Position numbers and translations under genes: made by a program
Notes under the pieces: model-generated
What the model saw: the letters and a program-made list of their open reading frames with translations, nothing else
The model's database searches: none
Told to the model about the DNA's origin: nothing
Part shown: positions 2,083 to 28,841 of the stretch, one piece after another
How the letters are laid out: the number at the start of each line of letters is the position of its first letter
How positions within the stretch are numbered: position 1 is the stretch's first letter
Assembly: GCA_963820435.1 (NCBI GenBank)
Contig: CAWGAC010000020.1
Location: 23,523 to 87,522, forward strand
Direction of reading: 5' to 3'
Source of the DNA: an uncultured Spirochaetota bacterium
GTDB lineage: Bacteria > Spirochaetota > Spirochaetia > SZUA-6 > Fen-1364
DNA: 64,000 nucleotides

Positions 2083-2938
2083 TACGCAATTGCTCCCGTA
2101 TCTTCTCCAGAGAGTCTTTCACCGCGATCACCGCCTGGTCGATCTCCAGGCTGATGCTCTTGGACCCGATGGTGTTGATTTCCCTGCCCAGCTCCTGGCA
2201 GACGAAATCCAGCCGCTTTCCCTGCTGCCCGTCCCGTCCGAGGGCATCCCGAAGGCTCTCCAGGTGCGCCTTCATGCGCTGCACCTCCTCGTTGACGTCG
2301 GACCGCATGAGCTGCACGGCGGTCTCCGCGAGGATGCGCGATTCATCCACCCCTTCTCCCAGCAGCTCCTTGAAGCGCTCCCGCAGCCCTTCCTTGATCC
2401 TGCTCTCGATCTCCGGTACCTGCGCTTCGATGCCGGCCAGGCGCACCCGGATTTCTTCAGCGCATTTGCCGATGTCCTGCTCGGTCTTGCGTCCCTCCGC
2501 GGCGCGGGACTGGTCGAATTCGGCGAACACCTTTTCCAGAAGCGGCGTGAGCAGCGCCCAGAGCGCCTCGGGGTCCTTGCGGCTCACCGTTTTCAGCACC
2601 CCCTCCAGTCCCATCAGCGCAGTCAGCCCCGGCCTCTCGCGCACCCCCGCCAGCCGTCTCAACTCCTCCAGGGCAGTCAGATAGGTGCGCACCCGGGCAT
2701 GGTCGACGAATACGTCGCTTTCCTCTTCCAGCTCCGTGACGGAGAGATAGAACTCGACCTTGCCCCTCTGGATGCGGGCGGAAAGGTATTCACGCACCCG
2801 CGGCTCGAGCTGCTTGATGCTGTACGGCAGATTGATGAACAGATCGAGGTACCGGTTGTTGTACGAGCGCATCTCCAGCACCATGTGAACGCGGCTGTCG
2901 CGGTGCTCTCCGTGGCCGAAACCCGTCATGCTCTTCAT
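2072..2938 (-). CDS. yicC: YicC-family stress-induced protein (UPF0701)
   Basis: 288 aa, intact. It has the characteristic MKSMTGFG N-terminus and the C-terminal coiled-coil region typical of YicC. Confidence 0.85.
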   Translation of the reverse strand: MKSMTGFGHGEHRDSRVHMVLEMRSYNNRYLDLFINLPYSIKQLEPRVREYLSARIQRGKVEFYLSVTELEEESDVFVDHARVRTYLTALEELRRLAGVRERPGLTALMGLEGVLKTVSRKDPEALWALLTPLLEKVFAEFDQSRAAEGRKTEQDIGKCAEEIRVRLAGIEAQVPEIESRIKEGLRERFKELLGEGVDESRILAETAVQLMRSDVNEEVQRMKAHLESLRDALGRDGQQGKRLDFVCQELGREINTIGSKSISLEIDQAVIAVKDSLEKIREQLRNVE

Positions 2939-4458
2939 CGCGCTCCCCCGAACATGGAGAGAAGCTCCCGACCGAGCTTCCAGTTGTCTCCCGCTCCCAT
3001 GGTGAGGAAAAGATCGCCGGGCTTCAGCTCCGAGACAAGAAAAGGAGCTGCATCGATCGGCTCCGGGAAGTATTTCACGCGGGGGTGGTTCCGCAACACT
3101 TCCTGGTAGAGGTCCCCGGCCGTGATCCCGCCATCATCCTGTTCTCGTGCGGAGGCGTAGATTCGGTGCAGGATCACGCTGTCCGCCGCATGGAAGCATT
3201 TCCCGAACTCGGGCAGGAGGGCGCGCGTGCGCGAATACGTGTGAGACATGAAGTCAACAACAAGGCGCCTCTCAGGATAAAAACTGCGAATTCCCGCCAG
3301 CGTTTTCTCGATTGCAGTGGGGTGATGCGCGTAATCATCCATGAAGAGAACCCCGCCCGCCTCACCCACGATCTCGCTGCGTCTCCTGCTGCCCGTAAAC
3401 GACTCGATGGCGCGCGCCGCGGCTGTCACGTCCATGGCCGCGCCTTCACCGCGGCGCGGTACTCCGCCCATTCTCTCATCCCGCTCCGCTTCCCACAGGA
3501 GACTGCAAAGCGCGAGGGCAGCGGCGGCGTTCAGCACATTGTGCGCGCCGGGGATCCTGAGCGTGAATGGGCTCTGCCAGCCGGCGAGGGCGAACCTCGT
3601 GCGCCCATTCCCGGCCTCTTCACGGCTGACGTTGAACGGTCCGGCGGCGCTCCTGCCGTAGGGTAGCATCACCAGGTCGGTCCTTTGCGCGTGAATGCGC
3701 GCCGCTGCCGTCCGTGCGCCGGGGTCGTCGTTGCAGTAGATCAGCGCGCCGCCGGGCGGGAGGGATGTGCCATATGACGTAAAGGCGGAAAGCATGTCCT
3801 CCAGGTCACGAAAATAATCGAGATGGTCGGGCTCGATGCTGGTGATCACGATCCGCTTCGCGCGGAAGTTCAGGAAGTGACGGCGGTACTCGCAGGTTTC
3901 GGCCACCAGAAAACGGTCCCCCTGGACAAGTGTCGAGCGGCCGCCGAAGGAGGGCACCTCCGCGCCCACGAGCACCGTGGCGGGAAATCCCCATTCCTTC
4001 AGAATTGCGCCGCACAGGGCGGTGGTCGTCGATTTCCCGTGCACGCCGCTGATGCCGCTGGAGTCGGAAACCCCGGAGAGCAGACCGAGCGCTTCAGGGT
4101 AGCTGAGGGTAGGGATGCCGCGGGCCGCCGCGGCAATGAGCTCGGGGTTCTCATCCTTCCTGTATGCCGCGGAGTGCACGACAAGCCGCGCATCCGCCGG
4201 CAGGTTTTCGGCGGCAAAACATTCGCGATAAGGAATGAAGAGATGCTGCAGGAGGGCGTCCGTATAGAATTTTTCCGCCGTGTCTGAACCGGTGATCCGC
4301 GCTCCGCGCGCGGAAAGGATTTCAGCAAGGGCGGCCATTCCCGTGCCCTTGATGCCCACAAGGTGGACCGGAAAGCCGGAGAGGGATTCAGGCAACCGGA
4401 ATGTCTCGGTCACAGGCGATGCCGGGGCGGCGCTGCATTGTTCGACGATCTGACACAA
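2935..4458 (-). CDS. murC: UDP-N-acetylmuramate--L-alanine ligase
   Basis: 507-aa intact ORF. Motifs GIKGTGMAALAE and GVHGKSTTTAL (Mur ligase P-loop) are present. The true start may be internal. Confidence 0.88.
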   Translation of the reverse strand: MCQIVEQCSAAPASPVTETFRLPESLSGFPVHLVGIKGTGMAALAEILSARGARITGSDTAEKFYTDALLQHLFIPYRECFAAENLPADARLVVHSAAYRKDENPELIAAAARGIPTLSYPEALGLLSGVSDSSGISGVHGKSTTTALCGAILKEWGFPATVLVGAEVPSFGGRSTLVQGDRFLVAETCEYRRHFLNFRAKRIVITSIEPDHLDYFRDLEDMLSAFTSYGTSLPPGGALIYCNDDPGARTAAARIHAQRTDLVMLPYGRSAAGPFNVSREEAGNGRTRFALAGWQSPFTLRIPGAHNVLNAAAALALCSLLWEAERDERMGGVPRRGEGAAMDVTAAARAIESFTGSRRRSEIVGEAGGVLFMDDYAHHPTAIEKTLAGIRSFYPERRLVVDFMSHTYSRTRALLPEFGKCFHAADSVILHRIYASAREQDDGGITAGDLYQEVLRNHPRVKYFPEPIDAAPFLVSELKPGDLFLTMGAGDNWKLGRELLSMFGGAR

Positions 4459-4536
4459 TGTGCCACTGTGTCTGGCACTGTAGCACCGGGTACGGAAGGG
4501 ATCAAGACACGGACACGGACCGCCCGCTCAGGAGCC

Positions 4537-5941
4537 CTACTCCGCCGCGTCGGCGTCGGAGACGGGGAAGCCGTTCTCCCGCGCCGTTTTGGCGTACCAC
4601 CGGCCCGAGTCCTTCAGCACCCGGTTCTGCGTTTCATAGTCAACCCAGGTCATGCCGAACCGCTTGGTGAACCCGAATCCCCATTCGAAATTGTCCATGA
4701 AGGACCAGAGGAAATACCCGCGAATGTCGGCTCCGTCGGAGATGGCCTGCCGGACCGCGGCCGCATGACGCGCGATGTAGCGCACGCCGCACCGGATCGT
4801 GCACTACTCCGTCCGGCCCCGGTGCATCCCGCAGTGACGTGCCGTTTTCAGTAACGTACATGAACCCCGGGTGGTATTCCCGATGCATGCGGAGCAGGGT
4901 TCGGTACAGCCCCTCCGGCGCCATCTCCCACTCCTCGAAATCCGCCCGGGGAACAAATGGCCAGTGCACCTGCCGGGCGGCCCACACGGCTCTGCCCGGC
5001 AGTGCCCCGGCCCGCCGGATCATGCGCAATCACCCTGCGGGTGTAGAAATTGACGCCGAGAAAATCGACGGGAGCTGCAATTGTCTCCATGTCCCCGGGA
5101 GAGATGACGGGCGCGTCCGGCCCATACCAGGCGGACATGTCCCCGGGGTAGGAGCCGCGGAATATCGGATCCAGGAACCACCGGTTGAACGCGCCGTCGT
5201 GCCGCATGGCCGCGGCAACGTCCTCCTCCCGGAGAGAGGCCGGCTCGATCCATTCGAGGTTGTGTACGATCCCGACGCGCGCGCCGCGCGGAATTGGCGC
5301 GGATGACCGGCACCGCGCGGCCGTGAGAGAGGAGTATTCCGTGCGCCACGGAGAGGGCCGTGCGCAGGTCCTTGAGTCCCGGCGCGTGGTCCCCGAAAAG
5401 ATGTCCCACGAACGCGACCACCCACGGCTCATTGTGCGTCATCCAGTCCTTTACCCGGTCCCCCAGCCGCTTGGTGACCGCCTCCACATAACGGACAAAC
5501 GCGTCCACAGTGGCACGATTGGCCCAGCCGCCGCGCTCCTGCAGCGTCTGGGGAAGGTCCCAGTGGAAGAGCGTGGCAAACGGACGTATCCCCCGCGCAA
5601 GCATGCGCGTCCACCAGCCGCTCGTAGAAATCGAGTCCTTTCGGGTTGATTGCGCCGTCCCCGTCGGGGAACACGCGCGGCCAGGCAATGGAGAACCGAT
5701 AGGCCTGAAGGCCGAGATCCTTCATGAGGTCGAGGTCGGCAAGATAGCGGTGGTAATGGTCGCACGCCAGGCGGCCGTCCTTGCCGTCTACGGTCTTCCC
5801 CGGGGTGCCGGCAAATCGATCCCAGATCGACTCGCCCTTCCCGTCCTCGTCCTTGGCCCCTTCGATCTGGTAGGCGGCGGTCGCCGTTCCCCAGACGAAC
5901 CCGTCGGGAAAACGAAGAAAATCTCGGTCGGCCATGATCAC
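4537..5941 (-). CDS. GH1 beta-glucosidase, split over at least 5 reading frames (frameshifted in this assembly)
   Basis: ORFs 5429..5941 ([19 protein letters not shown]), 5020..5688, 4848..5432, 4640..5029 (YVTENG) and 4537..4785 ([14 protein letters not shown]) together tile a complete GH1 enzyme. Confidence 0.8.
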
Positions 5942-6807
5942 CCCTTCAGCGCACCGGCAGTGACGCCGGCCATGATCCGCTTCGAGAAGAAAAAGTAGAG
6001 CACAAGCGGTACGACGGCGACGAGGGTCATGCAGGCAAATTGTATCGCGTAGTCCGAACGATACTCACCCTGGAACTTGATGATGGCAAAAGGCAGCGTG
6101 CGCAGGTCATCCGTGGCCAGGTACGTGTAGGCCATGATGAACTCGTTCCAGTTGTTGAGGAAGGTCATGACGCAGACGGTCACCGTTGCGCCTCCTGACA
6201 TGGGGGCAACGACATTCCAGAAGATCCGGGGCCAGGAGGCGCCGTCCATGAATGCGGACTCCTCCATGGACCGGGGCAGGGTCCTGAGCTGGCCCATGTA
6301 CACCAGCGTGTTGAAGCTCAGCGTGAAAGCCACATACGGGATGATGAGACCCAGGTGGGTGTTGATCAGCCCGAAATAGCTGAACCAGAGAAAGTTGGGC
6401 AGCAGCGTGGTGTGGATGGGCACCACCATGCCGAGTGTGACCGCCAGCATGGCGATGGGACGGAGCTTCCATTTCATTCGTGTGACGGCATAGGCCAGGC
6501 AGAAGGAAATGAAGACGGATGCCGCCACCGAGGTTACGACCACGATCGTGCTGTTCACGAAATAGCGCAGGATCTTCCCGTCAACCCAGGCGCGGACGTA
6601 GTTGCCCCACTGAGGGACAAGCGGGATCTTGAGCAGCTCGGTGCCGAAGAGATCCCCGGACTTCAGGATCGAGTAGTTGAAGACCCAGAGCAGGGGGAAT
6701 AACTGGAGGAAAGCGAGCAGGATGAGAAACGCATACAGGATCGTCTTCCCGATGGACTTCAACGCATTCGGCCGGACGCCGGCCATTGCCCCGCTACTGC
6801 GCGTCAT
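5938..6807 (-). CDS. carbohydrate ABC transporter permease (CUT1, MalG-like)
   Basis: 289 aa with 6 predicted TM segments and an EAA-type loop region ([15 protein letters not shown]). Intact. Confidence 0.85.
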
Positions 6808-14088: not shown

Positions 14089-14160
<72 letters not shown>

Positions 14161-20830: not shown

Positions 20831-23800
20831 CTATTCTGTTGTGCCGCCCGCCGCGAGCTGACCCCAGTAGTTGTTCCCCCAGGTCCAGACCGTGCCGTCG
20901 CTCTTGAGCGCAAGTGTGTGGTAAAGCCCGATCGCGATCGCCGCTACCCCTGAGAGACCCTGCGCCTGCGCCGGTAGGAAACGGTTCGTGGCGGTGCCGT
21001 CGCCGAGCTCGCCCTGCCGGTTGTCGCCCCAGCCCCAGACCGTGCCATCATTCTTGAGCACAATTGTGCGGTTGGCGCCTGCCGCGACCGCTACTACCCC
21101 GGAGAGACCCTGTACCTGCGCCGGCACGGAGCGAGCGGCGCTGCTGAGGCCAAGCTGACCTTCGCGGATCCACCCCCAGGTCCAGACCGTGCCGTCGCTC
21201 TTCAGCGCAACCGTGTGCTCGTATCCAGCCGCGACCGCGACTACCCCGGAAAGACCCTGCACCTGCACTGGAACGGAGCGGTCCGCCGTGGTGCCGTCGC
21301 CAAGCTGGCCTAACCGATTCTCCCCCCAGGCCCAGACCGTGCCGTCGCTCTTCAGCGCAACTGTGTGGGAAAAACCTGCCGCGACCGCGACTACCCCGGG
21401 GAGACCCTGGACCTGCACTGGCACGGAGCGGTCCGCCGTGGTGCCGTCGCCAAGCTGGCCTAACCGATTCTCCCCCCAGGCCCAGACCGTGCCGTCGCTC
21501 TTCAGCGCAACTGTGTGGGAAAAACCTGCCGCGACCGCGACTGCCCCGGGGAGACCCTGCACCTCCACCGGCACGGAGCGGTTCCTCGTGCCGCCGTCAC
21601 CGAGCTGGCCGTCACGGTTCCACCCCCAGGTCCAGACCGTTCCGTCGATCTTGAGCGCAACCGTGTGATGGCCCCCTGCCACAATCGCCTTTATCCCGGA
21701 AAGACCAGGGACGAGGAATGGAAAGGATTGCTGTGTCCAGTTGGCGGCCCCAACTTCCCCGGAACTGTTCAGACCCCAGCAAAAGACCGTGCCGCCAGTC
21801 TGCAATACTGCGGAATGGAGGTCACCGGCTGCGATCATGGCTATTCCGGAAAGATCCGGCACCCGGGCCGGCTTGGATCTGACCGAGGTGGTTTCATAGC
21901 CCAACTGGCCCTTGTCATTGCCACCCCAGGTCCAGACCGTGCCGTCATTTTTCAGCGCAACGGTGTGGGAAAACCCAGCCGCGATCGCGAGCACTCCTGA
22001 GAGACGGCTAAGGCCTCCGTCACCAACCTGGCCATATTCGTTATTCCCCCAGGCCACGACTGTTCCATCGTTCCTCAGCGCAACGGTGTGAGAGTATCCC
22101 GCCGCGACTGCTATCACCCTCAAGAGACCCCACACCTGTACCGGCACGGAACGGTTCGCAGTGCTTCCGTCACCAAGCTGGCCCCAGTCATTCTCCCCCC
22201 AGGCCCAGACCGTGCCGTCGCTTTTGAGCGCAAGCGTGTGAACGGCGCCTGCCGCGACCCCTGCCACGCGAGAGAGATCTTTGACCTGCACCGGTTTTGA
22301 ACTGTCCCTTATGGTACCGTCACCAAGTTCGCCATATAAGTTTCGACCCCAGGCCCAGACCGTGCCGTCATTCCTCAGCGCAACGGTGTGGAAAAGCCCA
22401 GCCGCGATCGCGGCTACCCCGTAGAGACCCTGCACCTCCGCCGGCGCGTAGCGATTCGCGGTGCTTCCGTCACCAAGCTGGCCATGATCGTTCTCCCCCC
22501 AGGCCCAGACCGTCCCGTCGTTCTTGAGAGCAAGGGTGCAATAGTCCCCCGCCGCAATCGCCGTTACCCCCGAGAGATTCGTGACCTGAACCGGCTTGAA
22601 GTGCGCCTGGGTGGTGCCGTCACCTGGCAGGCGCAGGAGATCCAAACCCCAGGACCAGACTGTCCCGTCGCTCTTGAGCGCAACCGTGTGGGCTCCTTCG
22701 GCGGCAATCGCCGTAACCCCTGTGAGCCCGGGAACTTGCGTTGGTGTTGGGCGGTTCGTCGAGTTGCCGTCACCTATCTGACCAGACGTGTTGTCCCCCC
22801 ATGCCCACACCGTGCCGTCATTCTTCAATACTACGGTATGCCAAGAGCCCGCCGCGACCGCCGCCACTCCTGAGAGACCTGTGACCTGGTGCGGTCTGTG
22901 GTGTTCAACCGATTCCGTCGCCGCGAAGCCGGCGTTGATTCCAACCCCAAAACGATGAGGCGGCCGATCGAGCACGAGCTCAATGTCCTCGCTCATGGCA
23001 GATCGATCCATCCGAGCCTCAAGACGCGTCAGGTATATCCCGGCGCCTTCCGGGAAGGGGTTTTTCATCAGCCTGCCAGCGACCTTATGAGAGTCGGGTT
23101 CCTGGTAAGGCCCCTTCCACAGAACGGCCAATCCCCGACCGTCGCTCCCCGCGGTCTCCCGAATGCAGCCTTCCACGTATTTTTCGACATCCACCGATCC
23201 GGGCACTACTCTCTTGAACTCTATAGGCGTTGTCTCACGATTCAACGAAGAGACCGTGCTCTCGGCGATCACATACAGAGTGATCCTCGCAGCATTGACA
23301 GTGCTAACCGAAGAGATACGCAGCGGGAAAATGAGGCGGTCATGGCGGTATCTGATCGTGAACGGCGGGAGAAGCTCATTCTCGTAGTATCGCTTCTCGC
23401 TTGGCTTCAGTTTGACCGCGACAAAGTTCCAATCCCCGTGGATATAGCCATCGAGGACCTCCTGAGCCGCAGGATTGATTTGATAGCCGTTTTCCTTCAT
23501 CCAGCTCAGAAGAGCCAATGCGTCCGTCGCTCCGAGAATGCTCACCTCGTAATGTTTTAGGGTCACGCTATCGTGGGGTCTGACCCCGCCAGAACTCACC
23601 TTTGTTTCAGCGGCACCTTTGTTGTGAACCAGGATGCCCGCCTTGTGAACCGCGTAATTGTGATGGCCTTCGACTTCAAGATTGAACACCTCGACCCTCT
23701 CCTGCCGACTCGAAAGGCCTGTGACGATAAGCCCCTTGCCGCTTATCTCCTTCAGCACGTCACCTTCTCTTAGGTCGCGGGCTTCCACCCATCGCCCAAG

Positions 23801-24451
23801 CACCCCCATCCTTTGTTCTTCTTTCGGGACGTCTCGCGGGGCGGGACGGCTATCGAGTCGGTCTCCGCGGAGGACACAGAAGGGGTGGTTCACGGTGGCA
23901 CGGATCGAGATTTGACCCACCCGGAGGGTGATCATGTCACCCTCGTACTGGATCGACAGGCGCCTGAGGACCCTCGCGAGGGTCCACTTTCCGGTCGCTA
24001 TGTCGCACCCTTGGACCCGTGTCCCAGCCCCGATGCTTTCGATGGCCCGAGGTCCGTCCGCCGTGAGCACCTCGGTTCCGACAGGGAAGCATCCGCCAGA
24101 AAAGGTGCGGACTACGGGCGTCGTGTGCTGATCGAGGAACTTGAACGCGGCTTCCCCGCTCTCGACAGCTTCTGTCACATCCTCGACGGCGGGAGGGACC
24201 GGTGTGGGAATGATCCAGCCGAAGTCTTCGCCCCCGCCGGTGTATCCCGTGGAGAAGGTCATGCTGATCTCGCTGCCATTCTTGATGATGATCGCCCGCT
24301 GGTCGGCGCTCACAGCCACTGACCGTGGGCTGAAGTACCCACCATCCCCCGAGGCCCGGGGGGTGGGAAGCAAGGCCAGACCAACGACCATCAATCCGAT
24401 CCATTTTCCATTTTTCACATTTCGTTTTCCTCGACGCAGAAGATTAATCAT
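20831..24451 (-). CDS. giant secreted protein: signal peptide + DUF2330-like domain interrupted by an intein-like Hint (BIL-type) domain + ~16 RCC1 beta-propeller repeats
   Basis: 1232-aa ORF 20831..24529 (the annotated start at 24529 is TTG; the first ATG is at 24451, followed by signal peptide MINLLRRGKRNVKNGKWIGLMVVGLALLPTPRASG). Contains a GGYF...FGWIIPTPVPP motif, Hint blocks A/B/F/G, and repeated GTVWAWGxNxxGQLGDG units. Intact, no frameshifts. Confidence 0.85.
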   Translation of the reverse strand: MINLLRRGKRNVKNGKWIGLMVVGLALLPTPRASGDGGYFSPRSVAVSADQRAIIIKNGSEISMTFSTGYTGGGEDFGWIIPTPVPPAVEDVTEAVESGEAAFKFLDQHTTPVVRTFSGGCFPVGTEVLTADGPRAIESIGAGTRVQGCDIATGKWTLARVLRRLSIQYEGDMITLRVGQISIRATVNHPFCVLRGDRLDSRPAPRDVPKEEQRMGVLGRWVEARDLREGDVLKEISGKGLIVTGLSSRQERVEVFNLEVEGHHNYAVHKAGILVHNKGAAETKVSSGGVRPHDSVTLKHYEVSILGATDALALLSWMKENGYQINPAAQEVLDGYIHGDWNFVAVKLKPSEKRYYENELLPPFTIRYRHDRLIFPLRISSVSTVNAARITLYVIAESTVSSLNRETTPIEFKRVVPGSVDVEKYVEGCIRETAGSDGRGLAVLWKGPYQEPDSHKVAGRLMKNPFPEGAGIYLTRLEARMDRSAMSEDIELVLDRPPHRFGVGINAGFAATESVEHHRPHQVTGLSGVAAVAAGSWHTVVLKNDGTVWAWGDNTSGQIGDGNSTNRPTPTQVPGLTGVTAIAAEGAHTVALKSDGTVWSWGLDLLRLPGDGTTQAHFKPVQVTNLSGVTAIAAGDYCTLALKNDGTVWAWGENDHGQLGDGSTANRYAPAEVQGLYGVAAIAAGLFHTVALRNDGTVWAWGRNLYGELGDGTIRDSSKPVQVKDLSRVAGVAAGAVHTLALKSDGTVWAWGENDWGQLGDGSTANRSVPVQVWGLLRVIAVAAGYSHTVALRNDGTVVAWGNNEYGQVGDGGLSRLSGVLAIAAGFSHTVALKNDGTVWTWGGNDKGQLGYETTSVRSKPARVPDLSGIAMIAAGDLHSAVLQTGGTVFCWGLNSSGEVGAANWTQQSFPFLVPGLSGIKAIVAGGHHTVALKIDGTVWTWGWNRDGQLGDGGTRNRSVPVEVQGLPGAVAVAAGFSHTVALKSDGTVWAWGENRLGQLGDGTTADRSVPVQVQGLPGVVAVAAGFSHTVALKSDGTVWAWGENRLGQLGDGTTADRSVPVQVQGLSGVVAVAAGYEHTVALKSDGTVWTWGWIREGQLGLSSAARSVPAQVQGLSGVVAVAAGANRTIVLKNDGTVWGWGDNRQGELGDGTATNRFLPAQAQGLSGVAAIAIGLYHTLALKSDGTVWTWGNNYWGQLAAGGTTE
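21180..21630. repeat. three near-identical 150-bp tandem DNA repeats (one RCC1 blade each) inside the giant gene
   Basis: cccagaccgtgccgtcgctcttcagcgcaac...taaccgattctccccccagg recurs at 21181, 21331 and 21481, period 150 bp. The protein shows ...SHTVALKSDGTVWAWGENRLGQLGDGTTADRSVPVQVQGL... three times. Confidence 0.9.
23621..24091 (-). other. Hint / intein-like (BIL-type) domain, aa 147-303 of the giant protein, inserted within the DUF2330-like domain
   Basis: Cys1 codon tgc at 24089-24091 (CFPVGTEVLTADG = block A). TVNHPF = block B (TxxH). VEVFNLEVEGHHNYAV = block F. GILVHN = block G. The +1 codon is AAA (Lys), checked in the DNA. Confidence 0.75.
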
Positions 24452-24776
24452 ATCACAGATCGCCAATCCGAAGGCGCAGGAACTCGCCCACGGTAGGTGC
24501 CGCGCCGCTAAGCCCGCCGAGGAGGACAAGGATCACAACGGGCGAGCCCCCGGAATATTTACGGCACCGTCGTGACCGGGAACGATAGGGATTAGGAGGT
24601 GGGTGTCAGGCTGGGTTGACCCGATTACTTTGCGTCGACAGCAACTGCAATGAATTGGCGAAATCCATGTTTAGGATTCGCAAGGTAGAGGCTATCCTGA
24701 CCGGGGCGGGGTGTAAGTCTTTGCTGCAGCCCGCGCTCTATGCGCCCCGGCCTGTCCCCTCAAATGAGGGCTTGTG

Positions 24777-24825
24777 TATTGAGCCGCCCCGGACTCGAAC
24801 CGGGGACCCACAGCTTAGAAGGCGC
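24777..24825 (-). repeat. tRNA-Lys 3'-half direct repeat, copy 2 (att-like; acceptor 3' strand through anticodon loop)
   Basis: attgagccgccccggactcgaaccggggacccacagcttagaaggc matches 28766..28812 of the intact tRNA-Lys with 1 mismatch. Confidence 0.85.
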
Positions 24826-25195
24826 TCTGAAGCATTTTCTCAGCGTCGCTCGTGTTCGTCCACCCTCGCTCATGTTCATGTATCGAAAGGAGATAGCCTC
24901 GCAGGCTTCGCTTGCCCTCGCTCGCGCTCGGCTCGCTTTTTCAGGCAATTGGTCCTAAATATGGTCCCACGCAAGGAGCCACAGGGAGAAAAGCTGAGGG
25001 CCGCCAACGAACACATGAATCAGCTGCGCCCCTCGGTCATGAGGGGGCACAAGTTCAGACACGCTGATCATTTCTTCGCCCTACCCTTATAGCAAAGCGA
25101 GCACCCCATCGCGTTCCTGCGAATAGCGGCACTTCGCAAACCCGCCTCATTTTCACGATTCGCGTGGCAATGCGAGTTTATCACGCGTATGAGTC
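24826..25195. repeat. ~300-380 bp repeat family, copy 2 (fused to tRNA-Lys fragment copy 2)
   Basis: Aligns with copy 1 (20424..20722). Its 5' 150 bp also aligns with copy 3 (27652..27805). Contains the GC hairpin gcccctc-ggtcat-gagggggc. Confidence 0.85.
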
Positions 25196-25573
25196 AAGGG
25201 GAGGAGGGAGTTTCTGACCCAGAAAGGCCGTTGGCATGAGCAGTCGCGCTGCAAGGAGTTGGTCAATATCGGAAATGGCCATTGTGACCTACAGTGTGAG
25301 CAGTTCTCTGAGGCCGCGCATGAGTGAGCGCTGCCAAGAGCGCTTTGCCGTCTTTCCCGCGGACGATGCACAGCAGGCGGGTGGTCTATTACTACATGAC
25401 TCGCGATGAGGATGGCACAGGGGGTTCGTGTGAAGCCGGTGAAGTATCACCGGGAAGAAGAGAACGGGAAAGGTCGCCCTCAACCCTTCCCGTTCGTCTT
25501 CCCACATTCTCTATGTCACTTTTCAAGGAGGCCTATCAAGCCCCTTTGCGATCGAGTCGCGCATTCAAGGCTC

Positions 25574-28768: not shown

Positions 28769-28841
28769 TGAGCCGCCCCGGACTCGAACCGGGGACCCAC
28801 AGCTTAAAAGGCTGATGCTCTGCCAACTGAGCTAGCGGCCC
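28769..28841 (-). tRNA. tRNA-Lys (anticodon UUU)
   Basis: Reverse complement is GGGCCGCTAGCTCAGTTGGCAGAGCATCAGCCTTTTAAGCTGTGGGTCCCCGGTTCGAGTCCGGGGCGGCTCA. D-arm GCTCAGTTGGCAGAGC, anticodon loop CUUUUAA, T-loop GGTTCGAGTCC, 7-bp acceptor stem. No encoded CCA. Confidence 0.9.

Follow-up and report, generated by a model that had tools for sequence, protein, structure and literature searches.

We examined one minus-strand open reading frame (ORF) in a 64,000-nucleotide stretch of contig CAWGAC010000020.1, part of the assembly GCA_963820435.1 of an uncultured Spirochaetota bacterium; the whole stretch is called the window below. The ORF encodes a predicted secreted protein in which a DUF2330 domain (PF10092) is interrupted by an intein-like Hint domain, first noticed in an earlier note that was made from the sequence. 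From the N-terminus, the product comprises a signal-like segment, the N-terminal half of DUF2330, the Hint domain, the C-terminal half of DUF2330 and about 14 RCC1 repeats. The true start is likely the ATG at M27 (window 24451) rather than the TTG from which the full frame is counted. The signal peptide was predicted from sequence features alone, and its hydrophobic stretch is directly followed by the motif DGGYF, which is invariant in the family and kept even in a distant DUF2330 protein (P0111). This motif would be the mature N-terminus of the host protein. The features are as follows (aa, amino acids; pLDDT, predicted local distance difference test).

20831..24529, minus strand: whole ORF, 1232 aa counted from TTG
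24350..24451, minus strand: predicted signal peptide MINLLRRGKRNVKNGKWIGLMVVGLALLPTPRAS, a basic and then a hydrophobic stretch
24092..24349, minus strand: N-terminal half of DUF2330, aa 61-146, ending in ...TFSGG (Pfam profile positions 6-81; AlphaFold2 pLDDT >90)
23621..24091, minus strand: type A bacterial intein-like (BIL) / PT-HINT domain, 157 aa, Cys147 to Asn303 (profile, PDB and Foldseek matches)
24089..24091, minus strand: codon of Cys1 (Cys147), the predicted thioester-forming nucleophile, preceded by Gly146
23885..23896, minus strand: block B, T-V-N-H, aa 212-215, aligned with TFDH of 2LWY
23621..23626, minus strand: His302-Asn303 of block G, Asn being the predicted succinimide-forming residue
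23588..23620, minus strand: post-Hint linker KGAAETKVSSG (read from the DNA; pLDDT <50)
23618..23620, minus strand: Lys304, the +1 residue, codon AAA
22976..23620, minus strand: C-terminal half of DUF2330, aa 304-518 (Pfam profile positions 97-278)
20831..22897, minus strand: RCC1-like repeat region, about 14 repeats with a 150-nt period

Identity of the Hint domain

Residues 147-303 (CFPVGTEV...GILVHN) map exactly onto window positions 24091..23621 and contain the splicing blocks A (CFPVGTEVLTADG), B (TVNH), F (VEVFNLEVEGHHNYAV) and G (GILVHN), all present and in order. No homing endonuclease domain or trace of one was found in the 157-aa insert. The isolated domain matches PT-HINT (PF07591) with 59 bits (E 7.8e-16) and the full protein with 50.8 bits, against a gathering cutoff of 27.7. 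Among the intein models, NCBIfam intein_Cterm is above its cutoff (24.4 vs 15.6), intein_Nterm just below (21.1 vs 24.5) and Pfam Intein_splicing below (31.5 vs 35.8); Hint_2 likewise falls under its cutoff. The top sequence match in the PDB, obtained with phmmer, is the BIL domain of C. thermocellum (2LWY, E 1.2e-8), in an alignment that takes in blocks B, F and G. An AlphaFold2 (AF2) model covering aa 27-545 (pLDDT 86.7) served as the Foldseek query and gave as top matches the BIL2 domain of Tetrahymena BUBL (6Y75/6TMM, E 4e-11) and then 2LWY, the latter with a target template modelling score (TM-score) of 0.90 and 31% identity. Mini-inteins ranked lower, and more than 50 solved intein and BIL structures with the HINT fold matched the model with Foldseek probability 1.0.

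The segment is a type A BIL / PT-HINT domain and not a canonical intein, because it has Cys1, a terminal His-Asn, mini size and no nucleophile at +1, and because its nearest relatives of solved structure are BIL domains. Type B BIL domains are without the terminal His-Asn, which is present in block G here. No toxin family matched downstream of the Hint domain, where the remainder of DUF2330 and the RCC1 repeats come next. The mini-sized, endonuclease-free Hint domain with Cys1, terminal His-Asn and four blocks that the earlier note had described is thus borne out by the DNA and by the profile and structure matches. Its assignment to the A-type BIL domains also agrees with the nearest sequence and structure relatives, as well as with 73 of 74 relatives that lack Cys, Ser or Thr at +1.

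The C-terminal junction reads CAC AAC AAA GGT GCC in the DNA (H N K G A), placing Lys at +1. The same junction, HN/KGAAETKV, is found in two near-identical metagenome sequences, P0006 on locus L029 (99.2% DNA identity) and P0198 (98%). A sequencing or frameshift artefact at this position, which the earlier note had already argued against, is ruled out by the codon reading and these two sequences. In L029, positions 2216-5985 hold the same gene as window 20831-24600, with 8 indels elsewhere that divide it into four called ORFs while the junction is identical. The indels are either long-read assembly errors or marks of a decaying allele, and a DDE transposase gene adjoins this copy.

Insertion site, family and evolution with the host

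DUF2330 is split by the Hint domain, such that the N-terminal 120 aa match profile positions 6-81 and aa 304-518 match positions 97-278. When the Hint domain is deleted in silico, a single match to positions 7-278 of 279 (102 bits) is obtained. The earlier note had suggested looking for insert-less orthologues, and DUF2330 relatives without the Hint domain do exist. In these, the stretch across the insertion point, counted between the conserved positions on either side, is 30-45 aa long; it contains many Gly, Lys, Ala and Ser residues and varies among relatives in both length and sequence. In the AF2 model, residues 117-120 before and 278-288 after the Hint domain (model numbering, the latter being KGAAETKVSSG) have pLDDT <50, with both DUF2330 halves above 90. 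We also modelled the insert-less relative P0089, which corresponds to window 22976-24349 without the Hint domain, and obtained a predicted TM-score (pTM) of 0.79 despite about 50 disordered residues. Its loop at the Hint position (109-127, about 19 residues) is disordered as well (pLDDT <50), and the order of secondary structure elements on either side of the loop is the same in both models. Given this pTM and the fact that Pfam treats both halves as one domain, we infer that the two halves make up one compact predicted fold, with the Hint domain hanging off a flexible loop.

The earlier note had placed the insertion inside a conserved domain and had considered this an unusual location for a BIL domain. 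Both statements hold at the level of the Pfam domain, which is indeed split; the exact site, on the other hand, is a variable disordered loop and not the conserved core, and at the level of residues it fits the general placement of BIL domains in non-conserved regions (PMC5874633). Cleavage with release of a free N-terminal piece of about 90 aa had also been proposed and now appears unlikely. In the predicted structure, the N-terminal half has four beta-strands, a helix and a further short strand; the four strands and the helix come from the 85 residues that precede the Hint domain. Since this half would be integral to the DUF2330 fold, a nicked or re-ligated loop is a likelier product than a free fragment. 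Eight insert-less DUF2330 proteins (P0058, P0063, P0065, P0070, P0079, P0082, P0085 and P0093) carry G-G-W-G-(K/R)-A exactly at the Hint position (aligned to window ~24092/23620). Judging by the protein sequences, these motifs may be scars of a 471-nt deletion, TG[C...AA]G, since such a deletion would place a TGG codon (Trp) between Gly(-1) and Gly(+2).

With aa 27-545 as the query, 112 clusters were obtained; among these and the query itself, 75 have a complete copy of the Hint domain. Most hosts are DUF2330 proteins (62 copies), some with RCC1, ankyrin or NHL repeats at the C-terminus and some with no repeats, followed by serpins (9 copies), LVIVD-repeat proteins (2 copies), a VWA/YfbK-like protein (1 copy) and one other host (1 copy). 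Later searches added about 15 serpin fragments and 19 DUF2330 representatives with the same junctions. A profile search with the Hint domain alone returned short fragments only, and the survey of hosts is limited accordingly; the more distant relatives found by the Hint profile are annotated polymorphic-toxin HINT proteins. The sources are mostly uncultured bacteria, and the named ones are Spirochaetia, Spirochaetaceae and Spirochaetota metagenome-assembled genomes (MAGs) and one Fermentibacteria MAG. When a genome collection was scanned with the Hint domain, one close relative was found in a Spirochaetota MAG (L001), outside any ORF of at least 150 aa and with masked residues in the neighbouring translations. 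At the other 27 loci of that scan, the match was to a distant Hint domain or did not extend beyond block G.

Among the complete copies, which have diverged to roughly 40-50% identity, Cys1 is present in 75/75, Phe2 in 100% and the terminal His-Asn in 73/75. Block B has Thr in 96%, Asn in 100% and His in 68/75. Conservation extends to the flanks. Position -1 is Gly in 92%, and position +1 (n = 74) is Lys in 49 (66%), Gly in 17 (23%) and Ser in 1, so that 73/74 are without Cys, Ser or Thr; Gly follows at +2 in 77% and Glu at +5 in 62%. The resulting arrangement, G before the Hint domain and K-G-x-x-E after it, is common to DUF2330, serpin, LVIVD and VWA hosts, and since these hosts are unrelated the flanks are part of the module rather than of the proteins that carry it.

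The Hint domain has diverged together with its host. Over 1081 pairs of DUF2330 hosts, mean identity is 0.546 for the Hint and 0.543 for the host domain (r = 0.73), with a difference of 0.003 +/- 0.049 and no outliers. Two tandem paralogues on one 156-kb contig (P0042 and P0049) show the same pattern, with 0.44 identity in the Hint and 0.43 in the host domain; the Hint domain therefore predates their duplication and was not homogenised. Recent horizontal movement or gene conversion among DUF2330 genes was considered and rejected, given the absence of outliers and the co-divergence of the tandem paralogues. That the Hint domain diverges at the rate of its host, paralogues included, argues that selection kept it as a working part. 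The two paralogues (L030, 8713-14520), which combine Hint, DUF2330 and ankyrin repeats, have a gene for a PrsW-family membrane protease immediately upstream and in the same orientation.

Insert-less proteins are scattered in a neighbour-joining tree of the host domain, which is poorly resolved. The wider DUF2330 superfamily counts 5376 representative clusters at E up to 1e-3, and among the best 150 of these matches none from about rank 85 on carries the Hint domain. The simplest history is one old acquisition in the clade followed by repeated loss. For 4/9 serpin Hint domains and both LVIVD Hint domains the nearest relative is a DUF2330 Hint, which points to rare transfers between host genes.

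These data bear on the idea that the domain is a canonical class 1 mini-intein with a misread +1 residue, or a decaying and inactive intein remnant tolerated in a loop. Cys1, the TxxH of block B and the terminal His-Asn are indeed intein-like, intein_Cterm scores above its cutoff, and insert-less alleles are scattered among insert-bearing ones. Against this, the two near-identical metagenome sequences share the +1 Lys, nearly all relatives are without Cys, Ser or Thr there, and PT-HINT is well over its cutoff with Intein_splicing and intein_Nterm under theirs. The retention of catalytic residues over deep divergence, in a Hint domain that evolves no faster than its host, speaks against decay. 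Furthermore, the host is a secreted protein and no housekeeping enzyme, and the Hint domain carries its flanks along. We regard this explanation as largely refuted and very improbable.

Predicted chemistry

Our preferred reading, to which we assign a probability of about 0.7, is that the segment would be an active, autoprocessing type A BIL domain seated in a disordered surface loop of DUF2330 in a secreted Spirochaetia protein. The proposal of self-excision follows from the presence and conservation of all residues for the type A BIL route. In the published route, a thioester forms at the N-junction and Asn cyclises, with no branched intermediate (PMC4031507, PMC7664689, PMC5874633); type A BILs cleave and can also splice without a +1 nucleophile, by aminolysis through the freed alpha-amine (PMC4031507, PMC5874633). 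Applied to this protein, Cys147 would attack the carbonyl of Gly146 after folding, and the N-to-S acyl shift would produce a thioester. Asn303 would cyclise and cut the Asn303-Lys304 bond. With no Cys, Ser or Thr at +1, no branched ester intermediate would form, and two exits are conceivable. Hydrolysis of the thioester would leave a nicked, two-chain DUF2330 held together non-covalently. Alternatively, the freed amino group of Lys304 would attack the Gly146 thioester and yield a re-ligated loop, as published for type A BILs. The data show what the domain is and where it lies, that its catalytic residues and flanks are conserved and that it has long co-evolved vertically with its host; that the chemistry takes place, and which product prevails, we infer. 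By analogy with Hedgehog and ubiquitin, Gly at -1 would provide an unhindered thioester, and the conserved Lys-Gly at +1 and +2 suggests selection on the ligation step.

Several observations weigh against this autoprocessing scheme or parts of it. Reported type A BILs yield mostly cleavage products (PMC4031507, PMC7664689), and for that reason religation may be minor. Simple cleavage does not account for why Lys-Gly (+1/+2) and Glu (+5) are so strongly conserved. The AF2 precursor folds confidently with the Hint domain in place (overall pLDDT as above), so that, to judge from the model, the protein could function unprocessed. Finally, the His of block B (position 69 of the Hint domain) is replaced by Gln in 5/9 serpin copies (P0099, P0100, P0101, P0106 and P0107) and in two DUF2330 copies, with Cys1 and the terminal Asn kept; these mostly serpin-borne copies may differ in activation of the N-junction or in activity.

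A different outcome is conceivable if the domain works as a thioester-transfer module of the Hedgehog or BUBL kind, with the Gly146 thioester captured by the epsilon-amine of the +1 Lys or by an amine or hydroxyl of another molecule. The product would be isopeptide-spliced, or else the N-terminal DUF2330 piece would end up covalently attached to a target. We consider this unlikely. The Pfam Hedgehog 'Hint' model weakly matches 23 members, and the N-junction GG/CFP resembles the Hedgehog autoprocessing junction. BUBL BIL2, which is among the best structural matches, is reported to make an isopeptide with Lys N-epsilon and to conjugate its N-flank to other proteins (PMC8616854). Lys occupies +1 in about two-thirds of copies and, by an informal reading of the flank lists, occurs within about 8 residues after the Hint domain in every copy inspected, and the prevalent Gly at -1 is the least hindered choice for a thioester. 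However, the conserved C-terminal His-Asn implies a C-terminal cleavage that is absent from Hedgehog domains, and +1 is Gly instead of Lys in nearly a quarter of copies. In the models, the N-terminal 85 aa appear integral to the DUF2330 fold and not detachable cargo, and the genes beside the locus include no evident partner.

Serpin hosts, the P35 lead and known systems

The serpin-borne Hint domains (P0097-P0109 and P0163-P0176) are 55-66% identical to that of the query. In every serpin copy, the hinge EEGTEAAA(A/V)Txx(G) comes directly before the Hint domain, and a Lys-rich stretch of 8-13 residues and then (I/L)F(R/L)ADHPFLF come after it, so that the domain is situated at about P5/P4 of the reactive-centre loop; this placement was seen in 18 copies with full junctions. 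Deleting the Hint domain from P0101 turned a two-stretch Serpin match (393 bits, positions 2-329 plus the remainder) into one covering positions 2-370 of 370 with 409 bits. Once the Hint domain is deleted, the loops span 26-30 residues between the P15 Gly and the Pro of DHPF, and the same span is 25-28 residues in three classical serpins. Judged by sequence, excision with re-ligation would thus give an ordinary serpin, in many cases with Lys or Arg near P1, whereas nicking without re-ligation would give a cleaved one. Cutting of the reactive-centre loop fires the serpin conformational change. A full-text literature search returned no relevant paper on an intein or Hint domain in a serpin reactive-centre loop.

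In the VWA/YfbK-like host (P0098), two tandem Hint domains (aa 33-361) lie between an N-terminal hydrophobic segment and vWF_A/VWA/YfbK_C domains. The first is without the terminal His-Asn and ends in ...VVSD, and the second belongs to the family of the query. This is a classic layout for release from an anchor.

We compared the P0089 model with structure libraries. Against the PDB, the sole Foldseek match with E <1e-3 was baculovirus P35 (1P35_C; E 5.5e-4, probability 1.0, 273 columns), with TM-scores of 0.34 (query) and 0.43 (target). Against BFVD, the sole match below the same threshold was an entomopoxvirus P35 (E 6e-4; TM-scores 0.30 and 0.39). Profile comparison did not second this: when DUF2330 profiles built from 50 and 72 sequences were compared by hhalign with P35 alone and with a 7-member P35 alignment, P was 0.24 and 0.56, and the Pfam P35 family (PF02331, MEROPS I50) had no match in 50 DUF2330 members at E up to 10. 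In greedy mode, a non-significant hhalign alignment put the DUF2330 loop on DQMD/G of P35, a result of little weight as this mode always yields long alignments. A P35-like fold of DUF2330 is accordingly put forward as an unproven lead drawn from Foldseek. Full-text literature searches returned no paper on DUF2330 and none on P35-like bacterial proteins.

In P35 a helix precedes the reactive-site loop, and we take the DUF2330 layout, a helix and then a disordered loop about 85 residues from the mature N-terminus, to resemble it. P35 is a suicide-substrate caspase inhibitor whose loop is cut at Asp87, whereupon its N-terminus traps the thioester (PMC7863939).

Together, the serpin and P35 observations raise the question of whether the Hint domain acts as a self-trigger of metastable inhibitor scaffolds (serpins and a P35-like DUF2330) from within their reactive or bait loop, where self-nicking or a stored thioester would replace or pre-empt cleavage by a protease and drive the conformational switch. 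The constant position of the serpin Hint after the hinge GTEAAAATxxG is in line with such a role, as is the fact that P35 was the only match of the insert-less DUF2330 at E <1e-3 in both libraries. The disordered DUF2330 loop likewise follows a helix at a distance from the mature N-terminus comparable to the cleavage site of P35 at Asp87, and the invariant DGGYF N-terminus has a counterpart in the functional N-terminus of P35 (PMC7863939). On the other hand, the P35 TM-scores are 0.30-0.43 with a root-mean-square deviation of 7-8 A, the hhalign and Pfam comparisons fail to support a relationship, and in the models the equivalence of the DUF2330 and P35 loops is a candidate at most. It may simply be that an insert of 157 aa with closely spaced ends is tolerated wherever a loop is long and flexible, and other Hint hosts (LVIVD, VWA) are not inhibitors. 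Overall, we find self-triggering improbable.

A related suggestion, also doubtful, is that this Hint subfamily was recruited specifically into the bait loops of suicide-substrate inhibitors, where it would make a Gly thioester together with a protease-free break of the loop. In that case the protein would act as an inhibitor or adhesin that triggers itself or is armed with a thioester, and the Gly(-1)/Lys(+1) pair might even be isopeptide-joined as in BUBL. If the likeness to P35 were true, one Hint domain would sit in the reactive loops of two unrelated suicide-inhibitor scaffolds. For DUF2330, which comprises more than 5000 sequence clusters, the P35-like fold is a first structural lead.

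Under the preferred reading, an autoprocessing type A BIL domain in a flexible loop, the closest known systems are the type A BILs themselves. BIL domains have been known since 2003 and were described between variable regions or before toxins; type A domains are reportedly covered by Amitai et al. 2003 and Dassa et al. 2004. The query shares with them Cys1, the TxxH of block B, the terminal His-Asn, the lack of a +1 nucleophile, mini size, a secreted bacterial host and a non-conserved site. In contrast, its subfamily has flanks of its own (G before the domain, K-G-x-x-E after HN) across unrelated hosts, sits within individual folded domains instead of separating the modules of hypervariable proteins, and has co-diverged with the host at an equal rate. 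Like the PT-HINT domains of polymorphic toxins, it is over the PF07591 gathering threshold, but it has no C-terminal toxin, being followed by the rest of DUF2330 and by RCC1 (or ankyrin) repeats; the PT-HINT literature that we found deals mainly with contact-dependent inhibition, Rhs and other polymorphic-toxin contexts. Class 1 mini-inteins share the HINT fold, Cys1 and the terminal Asn, are also inserted in frame into a domain and likewise have alleles that lack the insert, whereas the query differs by Lys or Gly at +1, the lack of an endonuclease, a site in a variable loop, a non-housekeeping host and flanks owned by the element. In BUBL BIL2 and the Hedgehog Hog domain the chemistry begins, as is predicted for the query, at a Gly thioester, which is captured by an amine in BUBL (PMC8616854) and by cholesterol in Hedgehog (PMC5874633). 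The query is only about 20% identical to these, has neither a ubiquitin-like N-flank nor a sterol-recognition region, and retains His-Asn. On the side of the host domain, P35 and serpin inhibitors are comparable in that the Hint domain occupies the reactive-centre loop of the sister serpins and that DUF2330 has, as P35 does, a long exposed loop at a similar distance from the N-terminus; sequence comparison, however, does not support a relationship of DUF2330 to P35, and DUF2330 is not known to inhibit proteases.

The domain type is thus known, and what is new is its embedding in loops of folded domains, the Gly and Lys-Gly junctions carried by the module, the co-evolution with the host at an equal rate and the placement in serpins. 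The family offers a natural system in which to approach the purpose of nucleophile-free Hint chemistry, which may be to nick a loop, to splice by aminolysis or to form an isopeptide. Hint domains that are short, have no endonuclease and splice at Gly/Lys junctions could in addition be of use as protein-ligation tools.

Regarding the surroundings of the gene, no operon partner is evident among the neighbours, which comprise a rhamnose/sugar ABC transporter and unannotated ORFs, and tblastn found no second Hint copy within the 64-kb window. Neighbouring genes of the window match proteins of a Spirochaetia MAG with full identity. The roughly 1 kb upstream of the gene (window 24530-25573) holds short ORFs only, the longest of 158 aa, and has no match to Rfam families. 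Across the entire window, RNA genes are limited to two tRNAs (14089-14160 and 28769-28841). At the other end of the gene, the tandem array coding for the RCC1 repeats (window 20876-22691) shows matches of up to 81% between units, and two neighbouring 50-aa RCC1 units are near-identical, which suggests a recent expansion.

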